Origin: an uncultured Candidatus Saccharibacteria bacterium
GTDB taxonomy: Bacteria > Patescibacteriota > Minisyncoccia > Phycocordibacterales > UBA12088
Length of the DNA stretch: 64,000 nucleotides
Direction: 5' to 3'
NCBI GenBank assembly: GCA_964567265.1
Contig: CAZMLK010000001.1
Coordinates: forward strand, 395,723 to 459,722
Shown here: positions 38,021 to 61,255 of the stretch, one piece after another
How the letters are laid out: each line of letters opens with the position of its first letter
How positions within the stretch are numbered: position 1 is the stretch's first letter
Program-made: the position numbers and the translations under genes
The notes under the pieces: model-generated
Database searches by the model: none
The model's input: only the letters and a program-made list of their open reading frames with translations
Told to the model about the DNA's origin: nothing

Positions 38021-38115
38021 GTAGCCAATTTACCACTTCTTCCCACTTAGTCACAAGTGTATAACACTTCATCCCACCCGCCTACACCTGGGTTATCCAC
38101 AGAAATGCGAAAAAC

Positions 38116-38343: not shown

Positions 38344-38369
38344 GAGTATGAAAAATGGAAAGGCCCGGA

Positions 38370-38401
38370 ATTTCCTGTCGGAAATTCCGGGCCGTGTGCG
38401 C
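38370..38401 (-). terminator. terminator for 38401..38805 (perfect palindrome ggcccggaatttcc-tgtc-ggaaattccgggcc)
   Basis: 14-bp perfect stem immediately after the stop, followed on the minus strand by TTTCCATTTTTCAT. Confidence 0.6.
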
Positions 38402-38805: not shown

Positions 38806-38865
38806 CGATCACCTCCATCTGTGATTTGGAATTCTCAGTGGAGAATACAACAACAAGATCATTCG

Positions 38866-40455: not shown

Positions 40456-40531
40456 TTCCCTATCCTAGCGATAATTGACTGAATAGTAAAATGATGGTTT
40501 TCTGTGTCGGGCAATCATACGGAGGTTCAGA

Positions 40532-40879: not shown

Positions 40880-40888
40880 TGGCGTGTG

Positions 40889-40926
40889 GCGGAGTCCTTT
40901 CGGGACTCCGCTGCTTTCTTTTTTAC
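40889..40926 (+). terminator. rho-independent terminator
   Basis: gcggagtcc-tttcg-ggactccgc followed by TTTCTTTTTTAC. Confidence 0.7.
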
Positions 40927-40988
40927 TTTGACAGTTTTTTCTGGAAGTGGTTTAAGAAAGCAAGACCCCGAGAAAGGAGTACGAGTGG

Positions 40989-41372
40989 ATGCATGGAGGA
41001 ACTATTTCTGTCAGGGACCTGCTTCGAGATATTGGAGACCCGGAGAAGCATTGGCATCGGGACGACAAGACGCGTGCTGAGCGTTTAGCACGGCTCGGCG
41101 AGGCACTCGACGAATCGGGCAGTCGTATGCTCTCCCCATACCAAGAAGGCGTCATCCGCGAGCAGTGTCGCTCGCTTTGGTTCGGCCCATCTCCTCGGGA
41201 AGCCGAAATTATCTTTCCAGCGATCGCAAGCATGATTGCCGCGTTCATATCGATGAACGGACACAGAATCCCCACGCGCATGTTGCGCGCCGCCAAAGGA
41301 CCGTCAGCCAATGGCTCGACACCCCATGTGAACCAGGACACTCGAGACGCTGCACGTCCTCCATTTATCTGA
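40989..41372 (+). CDS. hypothetical protein
   Basis: Promoter-like TTGACA (40928-40933) and an AAAGGAG Shine-Dalgarno motif 9 nt before the ATG; GC hairpins downstream (41395-41460). Confidence 0.4.
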   Translation: MHGGTISVRDLLRDIGDPEKHWHRDDKTRAERLARLGEALDESGSRMLSPYQEGVIREQCRSLWFGPSPREAEIIFPAIASMIAAFISMNGHRIPTRMLRAAKGPSANGSTPHVNQDTRDAARPPFI

Positions 41373-41488
41373 CGAGTTGCTGCGTTTGTCGCGTCGCCGC
41401 GAAGCCCCCGAGGGCTTCGCGGCGATTTGCATAAAAAAGCCCGCGCATCTCACGAGGAGAATGGCGGGCTAGGTCGAGCGAACTCTGG

Positions 41489-41611
41489 CTACTGGATTAG
41501 GTGCGCGAACACGGGTGCTCCGGCAAGGAGGAGAAGAATGATCAATCCGAGAAACTTATAGGATCTCGGCTTCCGGCACGGCAGGCCGATGACTTCATCC
41601 ATGATGGCCAT
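41489..41611 (-). CDS. possible 40-aa hydrophobic peptide (MAIMDEVIGLPCRKPRSYKFLGLIILLLLAGAPVFAHLIQ)
   Basis: GAAGGA Shine-Dalgarno motif 6 nt upstream of the ATG, single predicted TM, hairpin + T-run downstream on the minus strand (~41437-41462). Confidence 0.3.
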   Translation of the reverse strand: MAIMDEVIGLPCRKPRSYKFLGLIILLLLAGAPVFAHLIQ

Positions 41612-41731
41612 CCTTCACGAAAAGAACATGATACTACTGAACATGCTCTTTTGGAGAGGATATGTCAATTGTGGAAAACGAAACCGCGCGGTCAAAGCCC
41701 GCGCGGTTTCGTTTTAGTACATTCAGTGAAC

Positions 41732-42202
41732 CTACTCGACCTCCGAGATCTTGTAGTACTGCTTGCCGTTCGGAGTCTCGAATGAAAACTTCTCCCCCTT
41801 CTTCTTCCCCATCATCGCCTCGCCAAGCGGTGAGAGATGCGAGATTTTCCGTTCAATCATGTTGGCCTCCTCGCTGCCCACGATCTCGTACTTGTGGAGA
41901 TCCTTGTCGCCTTCTTTTTGGATAGAGACGTGCGAGCCGATGGTCACCGCATCACCCTTCTTCGGAGAGACGATCTTCGCGGTCTGGAGGATGGTCTCGA
42001 GCTTCTTGATGCGCTCTTCAGTCGCGGCCTGGAGATCACGCGCTTCTTGATATTCCGCGTTCTCAGAGAGGTCGCCGAGCGAACGGGCATACTCAAGGCT
42101 CTCCGCGATCTCCTTGCGGCGCGTGGTTTTTAAATAATCGAGCTCTTTCTTGAGCTCTTCAAACTTCTCCTGCGATAGGTACTCGGTGTTGTTCTCAGTC
42201 AT
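41732..42202 (-). CDS. greA: transcription elongation factor GreA
   Basis: N-terminal coiled-coil with the acidic tip (DLSENAEY) and the C-terminal FKBP-like domain. Confidence 0.9.
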   Translation of the reverse strand: MTENNTEYLSQEKFEELKKELDYLKTTRRKEIAESLEYARSLGDLSENAEYQEARDLQAATEERIKKLETILQTAKIVSPKKGDAVTIGSHVSIQKEGDKDLHKYEIVGSEEANMIERKISHLSPLGEAMMGKKKGEKFSFETPNGKQYYKISEVE

Positions 42203-42258
42203 GAATATTTGTTGTTTTGAATGGGCATATTCTACACGAAATCGCCCGATTGTCGAGG

Positions 42259-43944
42259 CTAGCCTTCAAGGTATTCGGGGGTGTGGACAGCCATCCAATC
42301 GAGCAGTTGGCGCATCACGTAGACGCCGCCGAGCGTGTTCGTGACTGGCCCTCGCTCCATGAGGACGATGAAGGCGTAGCGTGGATGCTCATATGGGAAA
42401 AAACCGGTTGCCCATGAGTTCACGTGCTGCTTGTCGCGTCCGAGCTGCGCGGTTCCGGTCTTCGAGGCGACATGGATGCTGTCCTTGTTGAGCCCGACGC
42501 CGGTGCCCATGAGCACTCCTTGCCGCATACCCTCCTGCACCACCTTGAAATCCTCTGCCGGTATGTCCACCTTCGTGCCGGTTTGCGTGGTCGAGGCGAT
42601 CAACGAGGGCGTGAGGAGCGTGCCTCCGTTCGCGATCGATGCGATTGCGCGGAGCATCTGGATCGGTGTCACCTGGAACCCATACTGCCCGATGACCGTG
42701 TTGTACGTGTCACCGACGCGCCAGTCTTCCCCGTCGAACATCTTCTTCTTCCATTCCGGATTCGGGATCGTTCCCGATTCCTCGCCCGGAAGCTGGATGC
42801 CGGTCGGCGACGCGATACCGAAGAGACGCGCGTACTTCTCAACGTTCGCGATGCCCATGCCCTGCTGGCCCGGGAAGCCGCCGCCGATCTCATAGAAATA
42901 CACATCCGAGGAGACGGCGATCGCATCTCGCATATCCACCCAGCCATGCGCCTTCCAGTCATTGAACCGGGAGGGCCTCGAAGGATCGTATGGATTCGGG
43001 ACCGTGATGTAGCCCGCCGAGTAGATCTGCTTCTCAGGCGAGATGACGCCCTCCTGGAGCGCCCCGAGCGCCATGAAGGGCTTCACGATAGATCCCGGCG
43101 TGTAGAGGCCGGAGACCATCCGGTCGAGGAAGGGCTTCCGGGTATCGCTCATGTATTCCTGGACCGCAGCACGGTCGTCAGCGCTCGACATGACGCTCGG
43201 CCGGTACTCAGGATAGCTCGTGAGCGCGATCAGCTCGCCTGTGCGGACATCCATGATGGCACCTGCGCCTCCTGTGAATGGCACCTGGTCGGCAAGCCCC
43301 TTGATGAATCCATAGAAGGCTTCTTCCACGCGCGCATCGATCGAGAGCGTTACATTGCCGCCGTCCCTGGGCGGCGTCAGCACGCTCTCGGAGTGGACCG
43401 CACCATGCGCGTCCACCTCGATCATGCGCTTGCCATTCTCTCCGGAAAGCTGGTCATTGAAGGAGCGTTCAGTGCCGGCTACACCCTTGTACTCGACTTC
43501 ATAGAATTTGCCGGATGAATCCTTCTTAGGAAGCGTGATGTATCCGAGGATATGGCCGAATCCGGCTGCATCGATATATGAGCGGCTCGCGAACGGCTCC
43601 GGCGTATCGCGCGTATTCCATGCGAGCTCCGTCCCACGCCGATCGTAGAGGACGCCACGGCGCGCGAACACTGTCGATTCCTCGAGCCGGTTCTGCTCGC
43701 TCCGTTCCTTGTACGTGCTTCCCTCGGCTATCTGGAGGATAGAGAGCCGGCCCACGAGCGCGAGGAGGATGAGGACGGCGCCGCTTCCGACGATGAGGAA
43801 CGCCTGCTTGCGGATCGGCGTCTCGAGCCGTCCTTCCATCTGGGCAGTATTGAATTCGGGAAGATTGCGGGAATCAAGAAAAATCTCGTCGGGATCGATC
43901 TCGACGACGCGCGTTCGTTTCTTGCTGAAGAATGGGATGCGCAT
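42259..43944 (-). CDS. mrdA: peptidoglycan D,D-transpeptidase PBP2 (elongasome)
   Basis: N-terminal TM, SxxK (GSIVKP), SxN, KTGTA motifs; located immediately downstream of mreD/mreC/mreB. Confidence 0.85.
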   Translation of the reverse strand: MRIPFFSKKRTRVVEIDPDEIFLDSRNLPEFNTAQMEGRLETPIRKQAFLIVGSGAVLILLALVGRLSILQIAEGSTYKERSEQNRLEESTVFARRGVLYDRRGTELAWNTRDTPEPFASRSYIDAAGFGHILGYITLPKKDSSGKFYEVEYKGVAGTERSFNDQLSGENGKRMIEVDAHGAVHSESVLTPPRDGGNVTLSIDARVEEAFYGFIKGLADQVPFTGGAGAIMDVRTGELIALTSYPEYRPSVMSSADDRAAVQEYMSDTRKPFLDRMVSGLYTPGSIVKPFMALGALQEGVISPEKQIYSAGYITVPNPYDPSRPSRFNDWKAHGWVDMRDAIAVSSDVYFYEIGGGFPGQQGMGIANVEKYARLFGIASPTGIQLPGEESGTIPNPEWKKKMFDGEDWRVGDTYNTVIGQYGFQVTPIQMLRAIASIANGGTLLTPSLIASTTQTGTKVDIPAEDFKVVQEGMRQGVLMGTGVGLNKDSIHVASKTGTAQLGRDKQHVNSWATGFFPYEHPRYAFIVLMERGPVTNTLGGVYVMRQLLDWMAVHTPEYLEG

Positions 43945-43950
43945 ATGGAT

Positions 43951-44253
43951 TTAGTTCCTGCCGATCTGGAGATACCGTCTCGAAAGCGGCACGAGGGAAG
44001 CGGCGAGGAGCGCGAGCGTCGTCATCAAAAAATGCGTCTCGATGCCCACGACCATGGTCCCGCCGTAGAGCACGTCCGCAACGACGGCAACGGCGATGAG
44101 CTCGTACCAGCCGAAGTATACCAGCGTTCCCAACGTCGCGGGGATCGCGAGCCACCACGGCGCCAGGAACGCGGCAGCGAAGAGCAGCGCATCAATGCCG
44201 ACTCTTCTTGGCAAACCGGAATCCTTTTTTTGCGGACGACGTCGTTCAAGCAT
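43951..44253 (-). CDS. mreD: rod shape-determining protein MreD-like small membrane protein
   Basis: 100 aa, ~3 TM helices, position between mreC and mrdA. Confidence 0.5.
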   Translation of the reverse strand: MLERRRPQKKDSGLPRRVGIDALLFAAAFLAPWWLAIPATLGTLVYFGWYELIAVAVVADVLYGGTMVVGIETHFLMTTLALLAASLVPLSRRYLQIGRN

Positions 44254-44271
44254 GAGAAAACGGATGCTGCA

Positions 44272-45090
44272 TTACTGCGCGCTTGTCGAGGTCGCACCCG
44301 CGGGCGCGATTTCGACCGTACGGAGCTCGCGGATGTTGACGGGACTTTTCGCGAGCGCGGTCTCGAACGAATCAGCAGCCTTCGAGCGCAGCGCGCCGAC
44401 GAGCGCGACCAAGGAGCTCGTGATTCCAGGAAGCGCGATCGGAGAATTGGTAGCAGCGATCGTACCCCGCGGAAGCTGCACGATGAAATTCCCGCCGCCC
44501 TGCCCGATCAAGGAGACGGACACCGAGGTCGTCGCCTGGAGGATATCCGCGCTGGTGCTGACTCCGGGAGACGAATACAGCGTGACCCGCGCACGGCTCG
44601 GCCCCACCTCTTCGACCGTGCCGAGCGCGAGCGCGCCGTAGGCGTACACCTTGTCCCCTTTCCGGATGCCACTCTCCTGCCCCGCGTCGATGACGAGCGA
44701 ATCATACGGAATCTCGGGCGGCCGGAGCAGGATGCCCGCGCGGATGCGCGCCCTCTCGGGATTGCGTCCCGCGAATGCGCGCAGGGACTCGTTTTCAGCC
44801 TCAAGAAGTGTCATCGCGACGCTTTTCGCGTTTGCATCGCGGAGTTCCTGCTTCAGCGCGGCATTCTCGTCAACGAGCGCGCGCTTGGAGCGGAGGAGCT
44901 CGATGACGGTACCCGATGACGCGACCGTGCCCGATTCTATCGATGCGACCGGGCGGAGCACGCCGAACACGAGGTTCTCGAGGAACGCCGGCGGCTTCGC
45001 GAAGAAGAAAAGCGCAACGACCAAAAGCGCTCCCATCACTGCGAGCTTGTAGCGGCTGAATGCTGTTTTACGTTCCTGGAGAGAGCGCAT
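44272..45090 (-). CDS. mreC: rod shape-determining protein MreC
   Basis: N-terminal TM, coiled-coil, C-terminal beta domains (GDKVYAYG...). Overlaps the mreB 3' end by 23 nt. Confidence 0.8.
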   Translation of the reverse strand: MRSLQERKTAFSRYKLAVMGALLVVALFFFAKPPAFLENLVFGVLRPVASIESGTVASSGTVIELLRSKRALVDENAALKQELRDANAKSVAMTLLEAENESLRAFAGRNPERARIRAGILLRPPEIPYDSLVIDAGQESGIRKGDKVYAYGALALGTVEEVGPSRARVTLYSSPGVSTSADILQATTSVSVSLIGQGGGNFIVQLPRGTIAATNSPIALPGITSSLVALVGALRSKAADSFETALAKSPVNIRELRTVEIAPAGATSTSAQ

Positions 45091-46141
45091 CTTCGCTTTC
45101 TATGAGCACGTCCGTATGCTGGTCGAGGGTTTCAATGATAACACCGGTTCCGCGCACGACGGAGGTCAACGGATCGTTCGAGCGGTACACCGGGATCTTG
45201 AGGATCGCCGTCAAAAATTCGGGCATGCCGCGGATGAGCGCGCCGCCGCCGACCAAGTGGATGCCGCGCTGCATCACGTCCGCCAGGACTTCAGGCGGCG
45301 TGGTCTCGAGGACCTCGCGGACGGATTCGACCAAGGTATCGATGGAATGGGAAATCGCTTCGCGGATATCGGCGTCTGTAATGACGACCTCACGCGGGAG
45401 GCCGGTCACGAGATCGCGGCCGCGTACGGTCGCTTCGATCGGCGCATCGCCCGGAGATACGGAACAAGCAGCAATCTTGAGCTCCTCCGAGGTCTTCTCG
45501 CCGATCAATATCTTGAATTCGCTCCGGATGTAGGAGGCGATGTCGGCATTCAGCTTGTCGCCCGCGACGCGGAGATTCTTCGCGCGCACGATGCCGGAAA
45601 GCGAGATGACGGCGATATCGGTCGTGCCGCCGCCGATGTCTATGATCATGCTGCCGATCGGCGCATGGATCGGCAGCTTGATGCCGATCGCGGCAGCCAT
45701 CGGCTCCTCGACGATGTAGACCTCGCGGGCGCCGGCATTCTTCGCTGCATCGCGGACCGCCCGCGTCTCGACGTTCGTGATGCCAGACGGCACGCCGATG
45801 ACGACGCGCGGGCCGAAGATCGTGCGGCGTCCTTCCTGCGCTTTGTTGAGGAGGTATGAAAGCATCTCTTCGGTGACCTCGAAGTCCGAGATCACGCCAT
45901 CAACGAGAGGGCGGACGGCCGTGATGTGGGTCGGCGTGCGGCCGAGCATGTCCTTCGCCTGCGCTCCGACGGCGACCACCTGGCCCGTCTTCTGGTTGAT
46001 GGCGACGACGGAGGGCTCATTGAGGACGATGCCCTTGCCGCGAACATACACGAGCGTGTTCGCCGTGCCGAGATCGATGCCGATGTCATTCGAGAAGAGG
46101 TGCGAGAACCTCCCGAACATTTTTTTGAGTCTTTCTACCAT
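45068..46141 (-). CDS. mreB: rod shape-determining actin homolog MreB
   Basis: IGIDLGTANTLVYVRGKGIVLNEPSVVAI phosphate-1 motif and other actin-fold motifs. Start could be the second Met (MFGRF). Confidence 0.9.
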   Translation of the reverse strand: MVERLKKMFGRFSHLFSNDIGIDLGTANTLVYVRGKGIVLNEPSVVAINQKTGQVVAVGAQAKDMLGRTPTHITAVRPLVDGVISDFEVTEEMLSYLLNKAQEGRRTIFGPRVVIGVPSGITNVETRAVRDAAKNAGAREVYIVEEPMAAAIGIKLPIHAPIGSMIIDIGGGTTDIAVISLSGIVRAKNLRVAGDKLNADIASYIRSEFKILIGEKTSEELKIAACSVSPGDAPIEATVRGRDLVTGLPREVVITDADIREAISHSIDTLVESVREVLETTPPEVLADVMQRGIHLVGGGALIRGMPEFLTAILKIPVYRSNDPLTSVVRGTGVIIETLDQHTDVLIESEDALSPGT

Positions 46142-46231
46142 GGTGGTGTGTATGGGGGGATCGGTGAGGTGATGGGCGCAAAGGGTCGATCCGTCGTTCC
46201 GAGGATAGGAAAAGGCGGCAGCGGTACGAAT

Positions 46232-47482
46232 TTATCTCTGAACGAACGACGCGAGCTCCTCGAGGGTCACTTTTGAGATTTCTCCTGTCGCGCGCTCGAC
46301 GACTTCGATCTTCCCGTCGGCGATGGTCTTCGCGGATACGACGGCACGGAACGGCATGCCGAGGAGATCGCTGTCGGCGAACTTCTCGCCTGCACGGAGA
46401 TCGCGATCGTCGTAGAGCACCTCGATGCCGCTCGCGGAAAGCGCTGCGTACAACTCCTCAGCCGCCTTCACCACCGCCTCGTCATTGCCGAGCTGCACCA
46501 CATGGATCTTGAACGGCGCGACTTCGAGGGGCCAGACGATGCCGTTCTCATCTGAAAGCGTTTCAACAATCGTACCCATGACGCGGGAGGGCCCGAGGCC
46601 ATAGCATCCCATCACGACCGGCACGTCCTCCCCTTCCTCATTCTTGTAGAGGAGGCCGAGTGCCTCCGAGAAACGAGTTCCGAGCGTGAAAATATTTCCC
46701 GTTTCAATCGCCTTCCGCTCGACCAGCTTCGCTTTGTCGAGCCCGAGATCTGCGATGACTTCGTCCGTATAGACTTCCTTGTTGAGCGCGATTCCGCGCT
46801 CCTCGTCGACATAAATCAAATCTTCGCCTGCATCAGACACCGTCTGGAATTCCTCGCTGTATTTCGAGAAGATGCCGCCCGCCGCGAACGTGACGAAGGT
46901 CCGATCGCCGAGACCTATGCGCTCAAAGATTTTCTTGTATGCGCGCTTAATCTTTTCGTAGAGTTCTTTGTGTTCCTCATCAGAGCGCGCGAACGAATAC
47001 ATATCCTTCATAAAAAATTCGCGTCCGCGCATGATGCCCGATTTCGCACGCGTTTCATTGCGGAACTTCTCCTGGACCTGGTAGGCCATGACTGGAAGAT
47101 CGCGATAGGAATGGATGAAGTCGGTCATGATGCGCGTCACCGGCTCCTCGTGCGTGATGCCGAGCCCGACGGTCCCGCCCACCTTGAGTTCAGTCTTGAA
47201 CCAATTGTCGACTTTTGCATCGTCCCACCGATCCGTCTTCTCCCAGAGCGTCTTATCCTGGAACACGGTCATGAGCAACTCCTGGCCGCCGATAGCGTCC
47301 ATTTCTTCTCGCACGATGCGGCAGATATTATTGAAAGTGCGGAGGCCGAGCGGCAGAAGCGTGTAGACGCCGGCCATCTCCTTATGGATGTAACCGCCGC
47401 GGATCAGGAGTTCTGCATTCTTGGCGACCTCGTCTTTCGGCGCTTCCTTGCGGGTTTTGGTGAAAAGTGCGGATTGGCGCAT
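46232..47482 (-). CDS. proS: prolyl-tRNA synthetase
   Basis: Class II motifs, MRQSALFTKTRKEAPKDEVAKNAELLIRGGYI N-terminus. The ORF-track ORF continues in frame 351 nt further upstream (see finding). Start coordinate +/-1. Confidence 0.8.
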   Translation of the reverse strand: MRQSALFTKTRKEAPKDEVAKNAELLIRGGYIHKEMAGVYTLLPLGLRTFNNICRIVREEMDAIGGQELLMTVFQDKTLWEKTDRWDDAKVDNWFKTELKVGGTVGLGITHEEPVTRIMTDFIHSYRDLPVMAYQVQEKFRNETRAKSGIMRGREFFMKDMYSFARSDEEHKELYEKIKRAYKKIFERIGLGDRTFVTFAAGGIFSKYSEEFQTVSDAGEDLIYVDEERGIALNKEVYTDEVIADLGLDKAKLVERKAIETGNIFTLGTRFSEALGLLYKNEEGEDVPVVMGCYGLGPSRVMGTIVETLSDENGIVWPLEVAPFKIHVVQLGNDEAVVKAAEELYAALSASGIEVLYDDRDLRAGEKFADSDLLGMPFRAVVSAKTIADGKIEVVERATGEISKVTLEELASFVQR

Positions 47483-47492
47483 ATGTAGAGGC

Positions 47493-47520
47493 AATTGTAC
47501 AGGAAAAGGGTGCCTGGTCA
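47493..47520 (-). promoter_or_regulatory. promoter-like TTGACC-16-TACAAT 11 nt upstream of proS ATG
   Basis: Near-consensus hexamers on the minus strand; preceded by a perfect hairpin ggccgctc-tccttcgg-ggagcggcc (47541-47565). Confidence 0.45.
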
Positions 47521-47893
47521 AAAAGGAAAATGGCCGCTCTCCTTCGGGGAGCGGCCAGCTTGAAACGGGTGTCGGCAGGGTATGCCCGCCATCAGGAGGC
47601 ATCGGGGCGAGGTCGATGGTCGCCTCAAGAAGTATTTCTGCGATCGTGAAGAGTACGACAAGCGACCAGAGAAGCATGAACAGCGTCGCGAAGACGATGA
47701 GACGGAATTGAGTATCAACCGCGATGATGTAAATCGTTGGCGCGCAGAGAATAGTTGCGGCAACGAAACAGACACAGACGATGAGCTGGGTGTCACGCGA
47801 AAGCCCGGACATGGCTAATCTCCATGAAATCACTCTGTTCTTGTCTCAAAATAGGCGCTCCCTGGATGCGTGTCAAACGGACGCACCGAATGT

Positions 47894-48206: not shown

Positions 48207-49316
48207 TTAGAATAACCGGACGATATCCTGGTACGTAATAGCGGCCATGAGGACAAGAAGAAGGATAAGGCCGCCTGCATTGAGAAAGTTCGCAATCTTA
48301 GGGGAAATCGGAGTTCCTTTCACCGCCTCGATGAGGACGAAGAGGAGCCGGCCGCCGTCCAAAGCCGGGAATGGGAGCACGTTGATCACGGCCAGGTTCA
48401 GCGAGATGAATGCGGTGAAAGTGATCAGATAGACGAGGCCGAGGCGGGACGCATCGCCGACGAGCCCGACGATGCCGACGGGGCCGGTCACCTGCGAGAG
48501 ATCGGCCTTGAGGACGAATGCACTCTTGAAGAAGGTCACGAGGCCTGCCGCGACTTCATACGTCTTCTGTCCCGTCATGATCGCGCCTTCATAGAGCGCG
48601 CGCACCGGATTGTATTTCAAGGTTGCCGTGAGCGCCATCACGATACCGGCAGCGGCACGATCAGGCTCATCCTTGATGATGCCTTTTACCGGAGTCACGG
48701 TCAGGATTCCCGATTCATTGGCGCGTTCGTACGAAACGACCAACGGCAGGTTACCGTGGCTCGCGATGAAACGGAGGACGGAATCGGGACTAAGCGCGTT
48801 CCCTTCAAGCGACTCGGCGGAACCTGCCTCTATTTTTGAAATCACGTCACCCGGCTTGAGGCCTGCCTCGGATCCCGGCGCATCCGGAACGACTGCGACG
48901 ATCTCTACCTTCGCATCCGGAACGGTGTCACGGTCTTCAGGTGCGAGCGAGGTCGGCATGCCGATCATGAACCCGAGCGAAAATAGGAGCCACGCGAAGA
49001 GGATGTTGCCGATGATGCCTGCGAGGAGGATCAGCGCCTGGACCCATTTCGGCTTGTTCGGAAAACTCCGCGCGCTGTCGGGCCCGGCAAGTGACGCATC
49101 GTCAGGATCCTCGCCGAAGATCTTCACGTAGCCGCCGATCGGGAGGAGGTTGAGGACGTAGCGCGTCTCGCCCCGCTTGATACTCGCGACCTTCGGCGGG
49201 AAACCGAGCGCGAATTCATCGACGCGGACGCCGAGCTTCTTGGCGGTGATGAAATGCCCGAACTCGTGGACAAAGACCAGGGTGCCGAGCACGAGGAGGA
49301 AGAGGACTATGGACAT
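48207..49316 (-). CDS. rseP: RIP metalloprotease RseP (site-2 protease, M50)
   Basis: HEFGHF zinc motif in TM1, PDZ domain, C-terminal LDGG motif. Confidence 0.85.
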   Translation of the reverse strand: MSIVLFLLVLGTLVFVHEFGHFITAKKLGVRVDEFALGFPPKVASIKRGETRYVLNLLPIGGYVKIFGEDPDDASLAGPDSARSFPNKPKWVQALILLAGIIGNILFAWLLFSLGFMIGMPTSLAPEDRDTVPDAKVEIVAVVPDAPGSEAGLKPGDVISKIEAGSAESLEGNALSPDSVLRFIASHGNLPLVVSYERANESGILTVTPVKGIIKDEPDRAAAGIVMALTATLKYNPVRALYEGAIMTGQKTYEVAAGLVTFFKSAFVLKADLSQVTGPVGIVGLVGDASRLGLVYLITFTAFISLNLAVINVLPFPALDGGRLLFVLIEAVKGTPISPKIANFLNAGGLILLLVLMAAITYQDIVRLF

Positions 49317-51938: not shown

Positions 51939-51970
51939 ACCCCGCACATCCATGCGGGGTTCTTTCTTAT
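51938..51970. terminator. terminator shared by convergent genes (accccgca-catccatg-cggggt + TTCTTTCTTAT)
   Basis: Hairpin overlapping both stop codons. Confidence 0.6.
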
Positions 51971-54777
51971 ATGATTTTCGGAGGCGATACTGGAAGCGTC
52001 GACTCCTTGCGGTAGCGCGCGAGGATATCTTCCTCCACGAGCGAGCGCGCCTTTCCATATTTGAGATATGAGAGCTGCTTCAGCGCTTCCGCATTCTCAG
52101 GATTCCCCGCCTTCGGTGCCATTGTCCTGATATTGAACGGCTTTGCCGGCCTCCCTTCAGCGAGAATCTTGAGGTACGCGTTCCGGTTGTCGATATTCAT
52201 GATGTCGCTCGCAGCGAAGGTCGGCGCGAACTGCGGCTCGAAGAATTTCGCATCCTCGGCGCCGACGCGGAACACCGCCATCGATCCGACGTTGCCGAAG
52301 ATCGAATCCCGGATGCCCTCCTGGAGCTGCGCGATGAACTGGTGCGCCACCGTGAGCCCGAGCTTGTACTTGCGCGCTTCGGAAAGGATGGTCGAGATGG
52401 AATCGGTGGTGACATTCTGGAATTCGTCGATATAGAGATAGAACGGCGGCATCTCCTTCCCACTGCCGAACGCGTCCACGCGCGAGAGCGCTGCCATGAG
52501 GATCTTGCCGACCAGGATGAGGCCGAGGAGATTCGCGTTGATGTCGCCGAGCCGGCCCTTCGAGAGGTTCACGAGGAGGATCTTCTTCGAATCCATCACC
52601 TCGCGGAAATTGAACGCGGATTTTTCCTGCGCGATGATCGGGCGCATGTACTCGTTCGCGGTGAAGACATCGAACTTGTTCGTGATATACGGCACGATGT
52701 TCGCGAGCGATGCTTCCCCCTGTGCCTTCGTGGCGATCTCCTGCCAGAACTGGAGGACGACCGGGTTCTTGCAGTGTGAGAGCTTGAGCGCGCGATACTT
52801 CGCGTCCGCGAGGACGCGGGACACATCGAGCAAGGTCATGCCGCTCTCGGGGTGCTCGAGGACGAGCAGCGTCGCGTTGCGGAAATACTGCTCGAATGCA
52901 GGGCCCATCGACTCGGGAGAGCCGGCGTACAACTTCTTGAAGATGCTGAAAAGCTCATTGACCACGAAGGTCTTCTGTTCCGGGAACCGGGGATCGTATT
53001 CGAGCATGTTGAGGCCCATCACGCGCTCCATGTATGCGGGATCGAAGTAGATGACGTCTTCCGCGCGCTCGGGCGGGATCGCGGCGAGGATATCCTGCAC
53101 ATCGCTACCATGCGGATCGATGAAACAGACGCCTGCGCCCTCCTCTATGTCCTGGATGATCATGTTCTTGAGGAGCGTCGTCTTACCGGTACCCGTCTGC
53201 CCGATCACGTAGAAATGTCGGAGGCGATCCTCTGGCGCGAGATACGCTTTCGTTTCCGCATTACGGAATGAATTGATGCCGAGAAGCGTCCCCGTTGCTG
53301 AGAGCCCGAGCGGCGGCGGCGCGTCAGCGGATTTCGACTGCCGGAATTCGGGCGAGGATTTCACGACGCCTGTCGGGAAGTGGAGCACAGTCGCAAGCTC
53401 GCGGAGCGAAAACGGGAACGATTCGGCGGCGCCGAAATCACGGAAGGTGAAGCGTGTCAGGAGCGCACGAAGCGCGCCGCCCGTCGCCCGTACGAATTCG
53501 AAGCGATTGCCATCCGCATGATGGAATTGATGGAAGCTCGATTCGATGTCGCGAAGGATGCCTTCAGCGCGCGCCTGGTCAGTCGCGGATACCACGATGC
53601 GGACATTGACCGGCACAATGAAGGATTCCCTCTTTTTCCTGATCGCTTCAAGGGCGACCTTGTCGACAATCTTTTCCTCAGGCGCCTCTTTTGCTTCAGC
53701 CGGCTTCGAGGAGAGGAGTGCGCCTTTGAGCGCGCCGCCGATCGCGAATGCGGCACTTCCGAGAAGGCTCGATTCGACTTCGCGATACACGATCTTTGGC
53801 TTCTCACCCTTCTCGATACGCTTCTCGATGCGGAGGTAGCGCCCGAGATAATCGTCACGGCCAGGTCGGATCACGAACTGGATCGACGCACCTGCTCCCT
53901 CCTTCTCGATTTTCGAGAACGCATTCAAAAGCACTGAGAGCGGATCGACATCAAATGCATCGTAGGTTTTTATCGGATAGATCGGGAGTTCTGCAAGGCG
54001 CGCGGTCGAAGCCAGTGTCACGCCGTTCTCTACGAAGATGTTGTAGTCGCCTTTTTCCTCGCGGAGATGCGCATGCGGGAAGAGCGACAAGAGCTGCTTC
54101 TCGAACAGCTCTGCCTTGGTGGTCGGCACCGATACATAGAAGACGATTTCCTGGCTTGCTGATGAAACGGCGACTTCGAAGACGAAGACCTCGCCGGTGT
54201 CATTCTCGCGAGATCCCGTGCCGAAGAGTCCCGAATAGAATTGTTCCATCACAGAGACCAGCTCCTTGATGGTCTTCCGCTTCGCGCTTCCGGCATCCTC
54301 ATCCTGATTGATGGAAGGCAGTGTCACTTCGTACAAGGTCATGTTGAGCTCGCGCCAGACCGGCTCATTTTCCTTCACCCCCGGCACTGGATATCCGGCA
54401 TGGATGTATTGCACGAGGACGCGGTGGAAATCGTCGGCGATATGCGGGCTATCCATGCGGTCAGCGACCGTGAGCGCATTCTTGAGTCCCTTGTCGCGCA
54501 TGACGCCAAGAAGCTCGCCCATGATGGCGTCGTCCTTCTCAGGCGGCAGGTCGAGGATGATGTCATCCACTTGCTCGGCAGTGAGGATGCGTTCCTGTGG
54601 GAGCACTGATTCCGAAAGCGCGCGTCGGTATTCCTCGATATGCGCGCTTGTTGCCGCTTCCTTGGAGACCGGATAGCCGATTTCTGCCATGGCACGCTCC
54701 TTCTCCGCGATCTGGCCGCGCAGATACTGAATCTCCTCCTCAGGAGAGGAGAATTTCTCGTTCACTGGGAATTCCAT
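51967..54777 (-). CDS. TraD/VirD4/TraG-like P-loop ATPase (type IV coupling-protein-like / HerA-FtsK superfamily) with ~450-aa unknown N-terminal domain
   Basis: Walker A GQTGTGKTT, Walker B LYIDEFQNV, and the C-terminal TVAHQFIAQL...GSMAVFRVG motif typical of TraG/TraD C-domains. 936 aa; no TM segment obvious. Confidence 0.75.
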   Translation of the reverse strand: MEFPVNEKFSSPEEEIQYLRGQIAEKERAMAEIGYPVSKEAATSAHIEEYRRALSESVLPQERILTAEQVDDIILDLPPEKDDAIMGELLGVMRDKGLKNALTVADRMDSPHIADDFHRVLVQYIHAGYPVPGVKENEPVWRELNMTLYEVTLPSINQDEDAGSAKRKTIKELVSVMEQFYSGLFGTGSRENDTGEVFVFEVAVSSASQEIVFYVSVPTTKAELFEKQLLSLFPHAHLREEKGDYNIFVENGVTLASTARLAELPIYPIKTYDAFDVDPLSVLLNAFSKIEKEGAGASIQFVIRPGRDDYLGRYLRIEKRIEKGEKPKIVYREVESSLLGSAAFAIGGALKGALLSSKPAEAKEAPEEKIVDKVALEAIRKKRESFIVPVNVRIVVSATDQARAEGILRDIESSFHQFHHADGNRFEFVRATGGALRALLTRFTFRDFGAAESFPFSLRELATVLHFPTGVVKSSPEFRQSKSADAPPPLGLSATGTLLGINSFRNAETKAYLAPEDRLRHFYVIGQTGTGKTTLLKNMIIQDIEEGAGVCFIDPHGSDVQDILAAIPPERAEDVIYFDPAYMERVMGLNMLEYDPRFPEQKTFVVNELFSIFKKLYAGSPESMGPAFEQYFRNATLLVLEHPESGMTLLDVSRVLADAKYRALKLSHCKNPVVLQFWQEIATKAQGEASLANIVPYITNKFDVFTANEYMRPIIAQEKSAFNFREVMDSKKILLVNLSKGRLGDINANLLGLILVGKILMAALSRVDAFGSGKEMPPFYLYIDEFQNVTTDSISTILSEARKYKLGLTVAHQFIAQLQEGIRDSIFGNVGSMAVFRVGAEDAKFFEPQFAPTFAASDIMNIDNRNAYLKILAEGRPAKPFNIRTMAPKAGNPENAEALKQLSYLKYGKARSLVEEDILARYRKESTLPVSPPKII

Positions 54778-56632: not shown

Positions 56633-56736
56633 GGTGTCGCCTAGGCAGTATACCTGCTTGCGCTTTGCTGGTCGTTGTTGACATATTGGACTTAATATGT
56701 TTTTATATCTCTCAGACAAACACAGGAGGACCTCCC

Positions 56737-57033
56737 TTGCCTAGAAATCTTGTTGCGTACATAGCAATAATCGGGGATCCGGCTCGCAAAACCGTTCGGA
56801 AGCATCAATTACCAGATACAGATACCTACTATGCTGAGGATCTCGTCGGAGAGATATTCCGTATCCCTCTTACGACCGCTGAATATGTAGTCAGTGTTGG
56901 TAATGCGCAGATGAACTATTGGCAATCCAGTCTTCACAAGACTGGAGAATTATGTTCAGGCATCCCGTGGGATATTATTGCGAGGGAAATTCTTTTGTTT
57001 CGCGACCCGAAAAATAGACCCGAGCGCCTATAA
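56737..57033 (+). CDS. hypothetical protein (98 aa, TTG start)
   Basis: AGGAGGA Shine-Dalgarno motif 7 nt upstream of TTG; promoter-like TTGACA (56683-56688); degenerate terminator hairpin downstream. Confidence 0.4.
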   Translation: MPRNLVAYIAIIGDPARKTVRKHQLPDTDTYYAEDLVGEIFRIPLTTAEYVVSVGNAQMNYWQSSLHKTGELCSGIPWDIIAREILLFRDPKNRPERL

Positions 57034-57035
57034 CT

Positions 57036-57075
57036 CCGACGGAAGCTCCGGCTTTCGGTCGGGGTTTCTGTTTTT
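57036..57075 (+). terminator. degenerate copy of the 57681..57718 terminator hairpin + T-run
   Basis: ccgacggaagctccggctttcggtcgg followed by GGTTTCTGTTTTTGG; the sequence resembles the downstream terminator. Confidence 0.4.
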
Positions 57076-57146
57076 GGCGGCACATCCTTGACTTTATATT
57101 TGCGGATTGTACTGTTCTTTTAGAAATCCTTGGAGAGGAGAATGTC

Positions 57147-57680
57147 TTGAGACCACGTCTGCAAATAGTAGATATAGGGAATCGGACGCACGCGACGATC
57201 ATAGCGGAAGCACGACGATTGTCGGTAGGCGTGGAGATGCGCGGCAAGGAGCGGACAGCATTTGTTGGCATCGAATTCGATCTCGGAACGCTTACGATGC
57301 TTTCTCCCTTGTTCCGGCACATGGACACTCTCGGGGACGAGCCGAGAGTTTATGTCTTCAATGAGCACCTTGAAGCACCAGATCTCTGCGTCATTTTTTT
57401 GACGCACACGACTGGCACCAAACTCTTAGAGGAGATCATGGGTCGAAACGACCTTGCAGGGTTTCAATCACCCCCAGATACGACAATCTTTGCGACCGCG
57501 GAGGCAAACATCCCGATGGCGGGGTCACTTGATGACTTCCTCGCAATCTATGCTGGCAGAGGATTTGCGAAAGTACTGATCCTCGAATCACTTGATCGGG
57601 TGTCCGAGCGCGTACCCTTCTACACGTTCCCTACAGCGCCCGTATCCAGACGCAACCCCCTGGATGAAATGAAAACCTAA
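57147..57680 (+). CDS. hypothetical protein (177 aa, TTG start)
   Basis: GGAGAGGAG Shine-Dalgarno motif upstream; bidirectional terminator right after the stop. Confidence 0.45.
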   Translation: MRPRLQIVDIGNRTHATIIAEARRLSVGVEMRGKERTAFVGIEFDLGTLTMLSPLFRHMDTLGDEPRVYVFNEHLEAPDLCVIFLTHTTGTKLLEEIMGRNDLAGFQSPPDTTIFATAEANIPMAGSLDDFLAIYAGRGFAKVLILESLDRVSERVPFYTFPTAPVSRRNPLDEMKT

Positions 57681-57718
57681 CCCCGACGAAGCCCCGGCTT
57701 CGTCGGGGTTTCTCTTTT
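57681..57718. terminator. bidirectional terminator (ccccgacgaagc-cccg-gcttcgtcgggg + TTTCTCTTTTC)
   Basis: 12-bp perfect stem between convergent genes. Confidence 0.75.
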
Positions 57719-57724
57719 CAAGAG

Positions 57725-58000
57725 CTATTCAATCGGGTCGACCGTGTCCACAAGCGCGGCTTCAAGGCTTACGATGCGCTCCCACGCATCCTTGTTACTC
57801 GCGGAGAGCGCGAGCATCTTCGCGGCGAAGGTCGCCTGGATGAACGGGATCACCCATGGATCCTTCTCGAACAGGTCCTTGAGGTGATCGAGCGTCTCGG
57901 CATCCTGTCCTGATTTGATCAACTCGAAGAGCATCTCCTTCTCATCCTCAAGGAGCGGGGATGTATCAATTGATTTCTTGATAGAGTCCAGCGTTTTCAT
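57725..58000 (-). CDS. small helical protein, member B1 of duplicated two-gene module
   Basis: 91 aa; paralog of 58746..59045 (shared KKSIDxSxLLxxEKExL ... PWxxxxxxxxxAAKxLAxxxxNxDA ... LVxxxxP). Confidence 0.5.
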   Translation of the reverse strand: MKTLDSIKKSIDTSPLLEDEKEMLFELIKSGQDAETLDHLKDLFEKDPWVIPFIQATFAAKMLALSASNKDAWERIVSLEAALVDTVDPIE

Positions 58001-58006
58001 ACAGTG

Positions 58007-58336
58007 CTATTGGAAATCAGCCGCGTTGATTTCGAGAGATTGCTCGCCTCCGAGCTTGGCAGCGACGAGCGATACCGGGTTCCCGTCCGCGTCGACGACG
58101 TAAGTAATCGTGACTTCGCGCCCCCCGTACGTGACGACACGCTCCGCGGTCTCTCTGCCGAACTCGAATCCACTGCTCCGCTCTGCTGCAGGAGCCGTGA
58201 GCGCCCGAAGGAGCGAGGTGAGTGCTGCGCGTTCAGGCTCGCCTTCATGCAACCCGAGCACTTCTGCTTCCGCGACCTCAAGCATGGCGGGGTCGAATTC
58301 GTTTGAATATGGGATTCCCTCTTTCATAGCGGACAT
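58007..58336 (-). CDS. small acidic protein, member A1 of duplicated two-gene module
   Basis: 109 aa, N-terminus M..EGIP..E..P like 59029..59508. Ends 7 nt before the B1 start. Confidence 0.45.
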   Translation of the reverse strand: MSAMKEGIPYSNEFDPAMLEVAEAEVLGLHEGEPERAALTSLLRALTAPAAERSSGFEFGRETAERVVTYGGREVTITYVVDADGNPVSLVAAKLGGEQSLEINAADFQ

Positions 58337-58468
58337 AGTACCAGTATCTCGGAATACTAGCGAACCGGATTTTCACCTGCAAGGTTCATGAAAAAAGCGC
58401 GGCCGGATTGACAGCACTCTTGAAAAACGTTTTTATCGCATATGGAACTTGTACGGAGGAGGTGTGTA

Positions 58469-58687
58469 ATGCGAATCCACGAACTGCCGGTGCCGACAAC
58501 TCCACATGTAGACACTATTCCCTCATCGGATTGTGGTCCTGGCGACGACGAAGGCTTGCTACGCCGGGATCCGAGCCAGTGCGATCATCTCTGGATACCA
58601 ACCACCGACGACGGCACGGAAGGCTGCCCGTTCTGCAGTTCTCAGAGGCGTGGAGAGCCGGTGATGGAAGTGCCCGACGAGAGATAG
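58469..58687 (+). CDS. small Cys4 zinc-ribbon-like protein (72 aa)
   Basis: GGAGGAGG Shine-Dalgarno motif 7 nt upstream of the ATG; promoter-like TTGACA-17-TTTTAT (58408-58436); Cys pattern CGPG...CDH...GCPFC; terminator downstream. Confidence 0.5.
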   Translation: MRIHELPVPTTPHVDTIPSSDCGPGDDEGLLRRDPSQCDHLWIPTTDDGTEGCPFCSSQRRGEPVMEVPDER

Positions 58688-58706
58688 AGAGTATTCGAGG
58701 ACCATT

Positions 58707-58738
58707 CACCGCTCCCAGGGGGCGGTGTTTTCTTTTTG
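58707..58738 (+). terminator. rho-independent terminator (caccgctccc-a-gggggcggtg + TTTTCTTTTTGG)
   Basis: Hairpin and T-run 20 nt after the stop of the zinc-ribbon ORF. Confidence 0.7.
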
Positions 58739-58745
58739 GAAAATG

Positions 58746-59045
58746 TTATTCGATGCTCGCGACCAGGTTCCGCTCGAATTCGAGGATGCGCATGAGCGCG
58801 TCGGAGTTCTCGTTCTCGATCGCAAGCGACTTCGCGGCGAGCGTCATGAACAGGGTCGAGACCATCCACGGATGCGCTTCGAGAAGTGCGGCGAGATCGG
58901 CGAGATACGTCTCTTCCAAATCGCCTTCAGTGAGCGCGACCAGCAAGGCCTCCTTCTCGTGCGGCAGGAGCTGCGACTCGTCTATGCTTTTCTTGATGCG
59001 TGCCTTTGGTTCCATGCAAATGTTGCCCTTAGACGAATGCAGCAA
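58746..59045 (-). CDS. small helical protein, member B2 of duplicated two-gene module
   Basis: 99 aa; paralog of 57725..58000. Confidence 0.5.
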   Translation of the reverse strand: MLHSSKGNICMEPKARIKKSIDESQLLPHEKEALLVALTEGDLEETYLADLAALLEAHPWMVSTLFMTLAAKSLAIENENSDALMRILEFERNLVASIE

Positions 59046-59508
59046 GATCGAGGACCATGTCCGGCATACCCACGCGCTTCACGACAATCTTCTCCGTCGC
59101 TTCGCCGCCGTCATCGGAAGCGAGCACGGTATGCTCGACCTGCGTTCCATCTTGATATTCCTGCTCGAGCGCGCTGTGGCGCTGATTGCCACCACCAAAC
59201 GCTTTCCTCAGTACGGGCGCGAGATTGATGCGGGTTGTCCTTCCGGGAATGTAATTCGGATTCTCCTTGTAATGCGTCACTGCTGGGCGGGATTCGAACG
59301 AGGATTTATATTCCACATGCATGCCGGTGCAGGCGCTGGTCATGAGCGCGAGCGCGCCAGCTGCCGCCAGCTTCAGCTTTGAATTGCCATGTTCCGCGAG
59401 ATTGGCCTCGCCTTCTGAAAAGTGCGCGAACGATTCCGTGAACGGACCTCTCTCGACATCAGACACTTCCGCTTCAATCGGTATTTCGTTTGGGATCCCT
59501 TCGTGCAT
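59029..59508 (-). CDS. small acidic protein, member A2 of duplicated two-gene module
   Basis: 159 aa; N-terminus MHEGIPNEIPIEAEV resembles A1; overlaps the B2 start by 17 nt. Confidence 0.45.
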   Translation of the reverse strand: MHEGIPNEIPIEAEVSDVERGPFTESFAHFSEGEANLAEHGNSKLKLAAAGALALMTSACTGMHVEYKSSFESRPAVTHYKENPNYIPGRTTRINLAPVLRKAFGGGNQRHSALEQEYQDGTQVEHTVLASDDGGEATEKIVVKRVGMPDMVLDLAAFV

Positions 59509-59521
59509 GATGTGTTCTCAA

Positions 59522-60826
59522 TTATGCGCACATCCTCGTGCGTTCTATATGAACGCCGATCGATCGGAGGCGTGCCTCGATGTTCGCGTATCCTCGGTCG
59601 ATGAAGTACGCGTTATTAATAGTCGAATTCCCTTTCGCTATGATACCGGCGATCAGGAACGCGAGTCCAGCGCGGATGTCCGGGCCGTCGACTTCCCTTC
59701 CCTTAAGGAGCGTTGGGCCCTTCACGGTCGCGCGGTGCGCATCCCATACCTTTATGTCGGCGCCCATGTGGACCAGATCCTGCGCGTAGTTGAGGCGATT
59801 CTCGTAGATCGTCTCGAACACCAGCCCCTCGCCGCTCGACTGCGTGAGGAACACCGTCATCGGCGCCTGGAGGTCGGTCGGGAATCCCGGATACTCATGC
59901 GTTTTCAAATCGAAGGAAGTAAAGTCCGAATTCGCAATCTTCCCGTTCCCGCTAATCTGAATGAAGTCGGCACCAATCTCCATCGGGACGCTGGCACTCT
60001 GGAGTGTCCGAATCACGCTCCACGCGTGATTCGGATTGCAGTTCGAAATCCGAAGATTGTCGGCCGCAAGCGCACCGAGGACGAGGAAGCTCCCCAGCTC
60101 AATGCGATCAGGAATAATGCGGTACTGCTTTCCCTCCGATTTCAGAAGCGCGCCGCCTTCGATCTCGATGGTCGGCGAACCAGCGCCGGTGATCTTGGCG
60201 CCACAGGAGTTCAGAAATTCAGCGAGGTCGGCAATCTCCGGCTCCATCGCCGCATTCCGAAGCGTGGTCTTCCCTTCTGCGAGCACTGCGGCAAGCATGA
60301 GCGCTTCGGTTGCGGTTACGCTCATTACCGTAAAAAATATATCAGCTCCGCGGAGCTTGCCGTCTTTCGCGGCAATCTCGTAGTGAGAATCATGTGTGGT
60401 AATCGTCGCACCCATCGCTTTGTACGCGGACAGGAAGAGATCGATCGGCCGCGGACCGATGACACACCCGCCTGGATGTGGAAAAGAGACTTTGCCGAAG
60501 CGGCCAAGAAGGGGTCCGGTCAAGATCACAGAAGCGCGCATGCGCTTGGCGGCGTCCGCATCGATGACGGTCTCGAACAAATCCTCCGTTGCAACCTCGA
60601 TGGTATCTCCCGATTGCGTGGTTCCTGCGCCGAGCTTTTCAAGAATCTCTCCCATCCGCTTCACATCCTCGATTACGGGAACATTCGTGAGTGTGAGCGT
60701 GTCCGAAAAAACGATTGCTGAAGCGAGCGCCGGAAGTACCGAATTCTTTGCGCCGCCGATCACCACTTCACCGGATAGGGTCTTCTCACCACCGAGGCCA
60801 GTGATATGGAATGATTCTTTGTTCAT
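59522..60826 (-). CDS. murA: UDP-N-acetylglucosamine 1-carboxyvinyltransferase
   Basis: MNKESFHITGLGGEKTLSGEVVIGGAKNSVLPALASAIV N-terminus, catalytic Cys region, EPT fold repeats. Start trimmed to the internal Met. Confidence 0.9.
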   Translation of the reverse strand: MNKESFHITGLGGEKTLSGEVVIGGAKNSVLPALASAIVFSDTLTLTNVPVIEDVKRMGEILEKLGAGTTQSGDTIEVATEDLFETVIDADAAKRMRASVILTGPLLGRFGKVSFPHPGGCVIGPRPIDLFLSAYKAMGATITTHDSHYEIAAKDGKLRGADIFFTVMSVTATEALMLAAVLAEGKTTLRNAAMEPEIADLAEFLNSCGAKITGAGSPTIEIEGGALLKSEGKQYRIIPDRIELGSFLVLGALAADNLRISNCNPNHAWSVIRTLQSASVPMEIGADFIQISGNGKIANSDFTSFDLKTHEYPGFPTDLQAPMTVFLTQSSGEGLVFETIYENRLNYAQDLVHMGADIKVWDAHRATVKGPTLLKGREVDGPDIRAGLAFLIAGIIAKGNSTINNAYFIDRGYANIEARLRSIGVHIERTRMCA

Positions 60827-60867
60827 GTCGGAACAATTGTACGGGCAGGCGAGACTTGGCACAAATC

Positions 60868-60902
60868 GCCCGCCGGTTGGGCCCTTGGCCCAACCGGCGG
60901 GC
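60868..60902. other. 16-bp perfect GC-rich hairpin (gcccgccggttgggcc-ctt-ggcccaaccggcgggc), no U-tract
   Basis: Perfect inverted repeat in the murA/priA divergent spacer. Confidence 0.5.
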
Positions 60903-61255
60903 GTCCCTTGCACTATCCCCACACTTGTTGCCTAAACCGCTCTATGCTACATTGACGACGTAGCAGACAACGGAGGTATGCTCATTATGTTGAGCTTGCG
61001 GTCGACTTATCGTGCCGATACCCACCTCCCCTCGAAGGAGACCGATTTCGTCCAGGAAGCCCTGGATATTCCACCGAGAGACCCGCTCTTCGATCATCCA
61101 ATCGGCGATTAACGCTAATCGCCCCACGCCGACCCGCACTCGTGCGGGTCTCACCTAGAGGGTGAACGGGCTCTGTTTCTCCCCGTTCAAAGCCTTCGGC
61201 CCTGCTGACCCATTTTTGGTCAGCAGGGCTTTCTACTTTCAGGTATGCTAGGAAG

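Follow-up and report, generated by a model that had tools for sequence, protein, structure and literature searches.

Organisation of the locus between murA and mreB

We analysed a 64,000-nucleotide (nt) stretch of the genome of an uncultured Candidatus Saccharibacteria bacterium (assembly GCA_964567265.1, contig CAZMLK010000001.1, positions 395,723 to 459,722), called the window throughout, and in particular a locus in it between mreB (minus strand, start ATG at 56632) and murA (59522-60826, minus strand, 434 amino acids (aa) from the ATG at 60826), both placed from a list of open reading frames (ORFs) and the raw sequence. The locus holds two modules of two small minus-strand genes each, in which a gene for an acidic protein, here called B, is closely followed by a gene for a second acidic protein, here called A. 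Module 2 lies downstream of murA: B2 (59029-59508, 159 aa) starts 13 nt past the murA stop codon, and a second gap of 13 nt separates its end at 59029 from A2 (58746-59015, 89 aa, helical), which starts with the ATG at 59015. Module 1 consists of B1 (58007-58327, 106 aa from the second ATG, or 109 aa from an alternative ATG at 58336) and A1 (57725-58000, 91 aa, a predicted five-helix bundle), with 6 nt between the B1 stop at 58007 and the A1 start at 58000. Along the minus strand, murA is followed by B2, A2, a Cys-rich gene on the opposite strand, B1, A1, a hairpin, a 177-codon gene and a 98-codon ORF, both on the opposite strand, and mreB.

A prior reading made from the letters alone (the sequence-only reading) had placed A2 at 58746-59045, with 99 aa and an overlap with its partner gene. 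The close upstream partner of each A gene was confirmed, but the A2 start is most likely the ATG at 59015 and not the TTG at 59045, because gene calls in independent assemblies give the shorter form, whose alignment with A1 and the other A family members begins at residue 1; A2 therefore does not overlap B2. In the window B1 and A1 share a reading frame (58001-58009), with a TAG stop and two codons (CAC TGT) between them. A fusion of the two by stop-codon readthrough was considered and rejected, since the ortholog in a more divergent relative (L004) has a 7-nt gap and readthrough is thus not conserved. Shine-Dalgarno motifs, previously ascribed to all seven short genes of the locus, proved strong in just three cases (the 98-codon ORF, the 177-aa gene and the Cys-rich gene). 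They are missing from the A genes, whose translation appears to be coupled to that of B.

The B2-A2 module is probably co-transcribed with murA. B1-A1 and the divergent Cys-rich gene are separated by an intergenic region (58337-58468) containing promoter-like hexamers on both strands, TTGACA-17-TTTTAT for the Cys-rich gene and TTGCAG-17-TAGTAT for B1-A1. These were read directly from the sequence, a consensus scan did not list them, and they may represent the promoters of the two units. A perfect 14-bp GC-rich hairpin (57679-57710) lies between A1 and the convergent 177-aa gene; it folds with z scores of -6.2 and -5.5 on the two strands and is likely to be a bidirectional terminator.

For strain comparison we used three strains with approximately 86% DNA identity (L001-L003), one with 99.35% identity (L005) and the more divergent L004, and obtained the ratio of nonsynonymous to synonymous substitution rates (dN/dS) by codon-wise comparison with L001-L003. 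All four A and B genes were under purifying selection, with dN/dS of 0.013 for A1, 0.054 for B1, 0.071 for A2 and 0.136 for B2, against 0.014 for MreB as a reference. Within B2 the ratio was 0.10 in the C-terminal domain and 0.28 in the 45 N-terminal codons; this constraint on the N-terminal codons themselves indicates that the extension they encode is translated.

The A protein family

A1 and A2 share 39% identity over 83 aa (E = 3e-13), so that the proposed paralogy of the two A genes stands. A profile search of 1.84 billion representative proteins gave 27 A matches, of which 25 were kept; the other two, large eukaryotic proteins with BRCA2-like and polyubiquitin-like repeats, were discarded as repeat artefacts. 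The 25 credible homologs, each a stand-alone protein 68-103 aa long, can be aligned from end to end and have isoelectric points (pI) of 4.2-4.8 and no hydrophobic segment. The alignment is marked by a central motif, D/H-P-W...P...Y-V-N..AK..A, and by three nearly invariant residues, K61, A64 and E80 in A1 numbering. An AlphaFold2 model of A1 shows a five-helix bundle with a predicted local distance difference test score (pLDDT) of 89.9. When the A profile was compared with the PDB, the X domain of the Sendai virus P protein (1r4g, E = 4e-5) and designed helical proteins were returned, and the best Foldseek match was 1t6o at E = 0.93; we judged these matches to be compositional or small-fold noise at chance level.

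In a distance tree A2 grouped with the A protein of a related lineage (L007), of whose single A gene, downstream of murA, it is the ortholog, while A1 and its L004 ortholog formed a separate branch. Because A2 clusters with the L007 protein and A1 is not its sister, the two modules are old paralogs and not the product of a recent tandem duplication, as the term tandem modules might have implied.

Neither A nor B could be assigned to a recognised family, as the sequence-only reading had also concluded. Scans of all seven ORFs of the locus against Pfam, NCBIfam, PADLOC and PHROGs gave nothing above noise, and a Pfam scan of the 27 A homologs gave only scattered noise confined to single members. 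No A1 match was found by tblastn in 72,556 plasmid and 50,697 phage records, a viral contig scan was empty, and two metagenome contig scans gave nothing. Beyond the window's own strain cluster and training sequences, word-indexed homolog searches gave no further matches. The sole match from a genome-contig scan, a Bacteroidetes DUF-like membrane protein, was dismissed as false, as it merely has the word KDSIKKSID in common.

Architecture of the B proteins

B1 begins with MKEGIP and B2 with MHEGIP, giving a common N-terminal motif M-[KH]-E-G-I-P. Beyond this motif and their position the two proteins are linked only by a loosely similar C-terminal end (NAADFQ in B1, LAAFV in B2); their overall similarity was not significant (BLASTP E = 1.6) and reciprocal hidden Markov model (HMM) tests failed for B1. 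The idea of two paralogous modules is thus upheld for the A genes and reduces to the N-terminal motif for the B genes. Like the A proteins, B1 and B2 are acidic (pI of both partners 4.3-5.2), and comparison of the two B sequences with solved structures gave nothing meaningful.

B2 is made up of an acidic N-terminal extension of 46 aa, a 19-aa uncharged segment LAAAGALALMTSACTGMHV that includes a lipobox-like TSAC, and a C-terminal domain of approximately 95 aa. The B-like proteins encoded upstream of A in other lineages have a common architecture: a start of the form M-E-G/K-x-P, a stretch of 35-60 aa that is mostly acidic, one basic residue (K or R), 13-19 uncharged residues rich in Ala and Leu (type A-L-x-L-M-T-A/S), and a C-terminal region of 40-300 aa. 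The N-termini and hydrophobic segments can be aligned between lineages but the C-terminal regions cannot. An HMM built from six distant B N-termini had the window's B2 as its top non-training match (E = 0.023; E = 0.0056 for the L001 ortholog). In three lineages a lipobox-like Cys closes the uncharged run (TSAC in B2, LSAC in L007 and LTAC in L016), and in others small AxA-type residues follow it; where the N-terminus is complete (B2 and L007), the n-region before the lipobox is unusually long at 41-46 aa. In B1 of the window lineage the hydrophobic segment is broken by an Arg (AALTSLLRALTAPAA), while the L004 ortholog retains an uncharged run of 14 aa, and the B1 C-terminus is beta-rich (VTITYVVDADGNPVSL). 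In the 375-aa B protein of L015, only EF-hand-like loops were recognised.

Conservation of the B-A pair

The contigs of nine divergent A homologs were inspected for neighbouring genes. A B-like gene was found directly upstream of A in 8 of the 10 lineages examined; this arrangement occurs twice in the window, which contains only these two A-family copies, and in L004, L007, L008, L009, L013, L014, L015 and L016. The two genes of a pair lie on the same strand, with a spacing that ranged elsewhere from a 4-nt overlap (ATGA) to 12 nt. The earlier suggestion to look for further copies in relatives therefore yielded B-A pairs in other lineages, and the two findings that would have spoken against a paired system, a match of A and B to well-known housekeeping families and a failure of the pairs to recur elsewhere, were not obtained.

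In L007 the gene order is priA, murA-B-A, mreB and a DUF87-type ATPase gene, which corresponds to the synteny of the window with a single module; the Cys-rich gene, B1-A1 and the 177-aa gene are absent from that locus. In the remaining lineages the neighbours vary and include genes for EF-G, for superoxide dismutase together with RelB/ParE, for a DUF2178 protein and a helix-turn-helix (HTH) protein, for PG_binding_1 and tetratricopeptide repeat proteins, and for purine metabolism. Across these lineages A aligns from end to end while the C-terminal domains of B do not. As separate observations, four T4SS_pilin genes were noted near the A gene in L010, and an M50 protease gene lies approximately 3 kb from the B-A pair in L013.

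The Cys-rich gene and other features of the locus

The Cys-rich gene (58469-58687, plus strand, 72 aa) is divergent to B1-A1 and was also called in the NCBI record. It has a Shine-Dalgarno motif (GGAGGAGG) and is followed by an intrinsic terminator, a hairpin with a T-run at 58707-58727 on the plus strand that lacks a U-run when read on the minus strand. Its ORF is intact in the window, L001, L005 and the divergent L004, with a dN/dS of 0.26, and the five residues of the pattern C22-x15-C38-x-H40-x12-C53-x2-C56 are invariant. The gene was found only beside modules of the B1-A1 type, in the window lineage and L004. It had been described as a zinc ribbon between the two pairs. Its placement on the opposite strand, its Shine-Dalgarno motif and its terminator were borne out, but the protein does not look like a canonical two-knuckle zinc ribbon. 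Zinc ribbons carry two CxxC (or CxxH) knuckles on beta-hairpins, and this protein has a single CxxC (CPFC), with C22, C38 and H40 as other candidate ligands. No match was found in Pfam, NCBIfam or the PDB. Metal binding by the protein is plausible. A 159-aa ORF antisense to the gene (1914-2393 in L001, 2311-2790 in L002 and 645-1124 in L003) was rejected as spurious: it is interrupted by stops in the window, and the sense ORF is kept as far as L004.

The 177-aa gene (57147-57680, plus strand) lies next to the B-A modules without belonging to them and has no assigned family; its tblastn matches were confined to L001-L003 and L005, and its dN/dS was 0.114. A1, B1, A2, B2, the 177-aa gene and the Cys-rich gene all evolve as coding sequence, giving six well-supported genes and not the seven first proposed. 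The remaining candidate, the 98-codon ORF (56737-57033, plus strand), showed 12 nonsynonymous changes and one synonymous change relative to L001 and 4 and 0 relative to L005, a total of 16 to 1. Related assemblies do not list it as a gene, it lacks relatives outside the strain cluster, and we consider it non-coding or unconstrained and doubtful as a protein gene. Examined as RNA, the region had no Rfam match and folding z scores of only -2.2 to -2.4.

Local duplication of the two plus-strand ORFs had been suggested by the hairpins behind them. The hairpins, which follow 57033 (at 57036-57075) and 57680, are indeed approximately 83% identical and both fold well, but the ORFs are not similar to each other and have only the terminator hairpin in common. 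We also noted that the segment 56580-57060, comprising the 5′ end of mreB, its leader and the 98-codon ORF, is 96-100% identical to L001, with dS of 0.4-1.0 in the flanking genes, which suggests either a recent recombination tract or constraint at the nucleotide level. A GGAGG-N-CCTCC palindrome (56724-56736) overlaps the apparent Shine-Dalgarno motif of the 98-codon ORF.

Features of the wider window

The 429-nt gap between priA and murA (60827-61255) folded on the murA strand at -201.9 kcal/mol, compared with -155.7 kcal/mol for shuffled sequence (z = -7.5), and contains a perfect 17-bp hairpin (60867-60903) and a hairpin of 12-13 bp (61198-61230). In L002 the 17-bp hairpin carries a compensatory change from G-C to U-A, and the corresponding gap in L007 is of similar size with partly conserved blocks. 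Rfam gave no match at threshold for this gap, the best being Atu_C7 on the plus strand at 35 bits (gathering threshold 45). The region is a candidate structured leader or non-coding RNA.

On the other side of the locus, two genes beyond mreB, 51967-54777 (minus strand) encodes a 936-aa ATPase with matches to DUF87/HerA, TraG/VirD4-type coupling proteins and TraG-D_C; a 920-aa counterpart (DUF8128 and DUF87) occupies the equivalent position in L007 (8651-11413). A stretch rich in peptidoglycan genes (33254-47833) includes two penicillin-binding protein (PBP) transpeptidases (34621-36333 and 42259-43944) and a Mur ligase (33254-34546), and encloses a class I lysyl-tRNA synthetase gene (38866-40455); a gene for an RseP-type M50 protease (48207-49316) lies just past it. 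Two large proteins encoded at 23325-25730 and 29023-30603 match in part the SKICH domain, a domain usually found in eukaryotes; a GDSL lipase domain was also recognised in one of the two. The class I lysyl-tRNA synthetase, a longest contig of 621,860 bp and the T4SS_pilin genes close to the A gene of a relative suggest that the organism is probably of the small-genome, Patescibacteria-like kind.

Interpretation of the B-A pair and alternative explanations

Our preferred explanation, held tentatively and at somewhat less than an even chance, is that B carries an extended N-terminal leader and is exported or anchored to lipid, and that A is its dedicated cytoplasmic partner. From the directly established gene structure, A paralogy, coding constraint, conserved pairing and B architecture, together with the predicted A fold, we infer binding of A to B, export or lipidation of B, and any role downstream of these. 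B is probably exported or lipid-anchored because its uncharged run of 13-19 aa follows a basic residue, ends in a lipobox-like Cys in three lineages, and resembles the h-region of a signal peptide more than a stable membrane helix. A probably recognises the N-terminal extension of B, because only the B-then-A linkage survives between lineages and the only conserved part of B is the extension with its hydrophobic segment, while A is conserved throughout.

On this model the A and B proteins of each module would act as a complex. B would be an envelope protein whose lineage-specific C-terminal domain lies outside the cytoplasm, and A, an acidic cytoplasmic five-helix bundle of approximately 90 aa, would be made stoichiometrically from the same mRNA through translational coupling. 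By binding the conserved extension at the N-terminus of B, A would act as a partner dedicated to holding, targeting or retaining B, and the complex might serve to hold B, to target it, to gate its export or to signal through a released leader. Module 2, behind murA, is orthologous to the single module of the related lineage; module 1, with its putative own promoter and associated Cys-rich protein, may contain a B1 that now stays in the cytoplasm. A bolder version, which we regard as unlikely, is that the pair belongs to an undescribed export-linked system of small-genome, probably Patescibacteria-type, bacteria in which A reads an acidic extension of 40-60 aa on a Sec or lipoprotein signal peptide, either gating the export of variable cargo or capturing the released leader as an inward signal of export, with B1-A1 as a derivative retained in the cytoplasm.

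Several observations weigh against the export-partner explanation. In one clade (P0027, comprising L010-L012) the gene upstream of A encodes a basic protein that is not recognisably B-like, and a borderline A member (P0037) has a glycoside hydrolase gene directly upstream. The HMM of distant B N-termini misses B1, which is tied statistically to B only by the N-terminal motif. Measured against the lipobox pattern [LVI][ASTVI][GAS]C, LSAC of L007 and LTAC of L016 are canonical but B2 has a non-canonical Thr at position -3, and the AlphaFold2 model of B2 was unusable (pLDDT 43). Finally, B1-A1 is strongly conserved despite the Arg-broken hydrophobic segment of B1, so that the pair must have some value that is independent of export.

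The sequence-only reading had likened the modules to toxin-antitoxin or effector-immunity cassettes, and for neither did we find support. Tandemly duplicated type II toxin-antitoxin cassettes, with B as the acidic and labile antitoxin and A as the toxin or with these roles exchanged, would account for two small genes coupled in translation and present in more than one copy, and the pair of L013 does adjoin a RelB/ParE cassette. However, the window proteins and the 27 A family members match no toxin or antitoxin in the databases scanned, both partners are acidic with no DNA-binding fold detected, B carries a signal-peptide-like segment with a lipobox-like Cys, and A1 is very strongly constrained; there were no matches in plasmids, phages or viral contigs, and the locus has a stable place in the core chromosome, in synteny with murA. 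We consider this explanation highly improbable. A secreted effector of the polymorphic-toxin kind, exported through an N-terminal trafficking region and paired with a cytoplasmic immunity protein A, fits the conserved N-terminus and unrelated C-terminal domains of B and the small cytoplasmic protein encoded directly downstream. Yet immunity proteins usually co-vary with their toxin domain, whereas here A is conserved from lineage to lineage and the C-termini of B are not related to one another. No toxin or trafficking domain was detected (LXG, WXG100, RHS, PAAR, DUF4157 and others), the B C-terminal domains comprise only about 40-100 aa in most lineages, and B1 and A1 remain strongly conserved after the apparent loss of the B1 export segment. 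We consider an effector-immunity pair very unlikely.

A role in cell wall synthesis or cell shape, with B as an N-in single-pass membrane protein and A as a cytoplasmic adaptor through which, as with RodZ, GpsB or ReoM, MurA or MreB would be connected to the envelope, is suggested by the position of module 2 between murA and mreB, behind the former of which it is probably co-transcribed, in both the window lineage and L007. The peptidoglycan genes of the window, including two PBPs and a Mur ligase, and the location of the L015 pair behind a PG_binding_1 protein point in the same direction. Against it, the linkage to murA and mreB is restricted to close relatives while distant pairs have unrelated neighbours, no match to RodZ (HTH), IreB/ReoM, DivIVA/GpsB or MreC/D was found by sequence or fold, and a stable transmembrane helix would normally be longer than the uncharged segments of 13-19 aa; we rate this explanation as unlikely. 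It is also conceivable, at a very low probability, that A and B are adjacent lineage-specific orphans with no functional coupling and that their shared N-terminal motif is incidental, since small genomes of uncultured organisms abound in short orphan genes and the similarity of B1 to B2 is statistically weak. What speaks against such a coincidence is that the order B then A, from a 4-nt overlap to a 13-nt gap, is kept in at least eight divergent lineages despite the change of all other neighbours, and that the N-terminal architecture of B recurs with it. The probability that is left over falls to some reading outside those listed here.

Should binding of A to the extended N-terminus of B be confirmed, the two would form a new family-specific client-partner pair for envelope proteins. 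The pair would belong to poorly understood small-genome bacteria whose surface biology underlies a host-dependent lifestyle, and the export-partner explanation, if true, would give a role to two orphan families. The A family is rare (about 25 clusters among 1.8 billion representatives), so that the impact would be local and not general. For annotation, the shifted start of A2, the doubtful 98-codon ORF, the spurious antisense 159-aa call and the unsupported toxin-antitoxin label are the practical corrections.

Comparison with known systems

By genomic position, the closest systems are ReoM/IreB, which regulates MurA stability, and the MreB anchor RodZ, small partners in MurA and MreB control in Firmicutes and other bacteria. 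A resembles ReoM and IreB in being a helical protein of about 90 aa encoded beside murA, but it is not a member of the IreB/UPF0297 family by sequence or by fold. The position beside mreB recalls RodZ, a single protein that joins an N-terminal XRE-type HTH to a transmembrane helix and a periplasmic domain, a combination seen in neither A nor B. Among small secreted helical proteins, WXG100/ESAT-6 can be set aside: there was no match to PF06013, the central motif of A is D/H-P-W and not WxG, and the predicted fold is a five-helix bundle, not a helical hairpin.

The best structural matches to A, none of them significant, came from its first three helices and were to the paramyxovirus phosphoprotein X domain and comparable three-helix peptide-binding bundles. 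The X domain and similar three-helix bundles bind a disordered segment of a partner that folds on binding. A has five helices and kinship between viral and bacterial proteins is implausible here, so that the comparison is useful only as an analogy for how a small bundle might bind a disordered acidic tail.

In function, A would be most similar to dedicated chaperones that attend exported proteins in the cytoplasm: the REMPs that bind Tat signal peptides (TorD, DmsD and NapD), the class I chaperones of type III secretion, and the flagellar FliS, FliT and FlgN. This likeness is one of inferred function: none of these families has a sequence match or a significant fold match to A, and TorD and DmsD are twice as large as A. 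The substrates differ as well, since Tat substrates carry an S/T-R-R-x-F-L-K motif while B has no twin-arginine and shows a single R or K with only R-F-like motifs. There is no sign of a type III or flagellar apparatus. A and B are best described as two uncharacterised families, members of no such chaperone system, whose pairing would by analogy resemble that of a client-specific cytoplasmic chaperone with its exported client.

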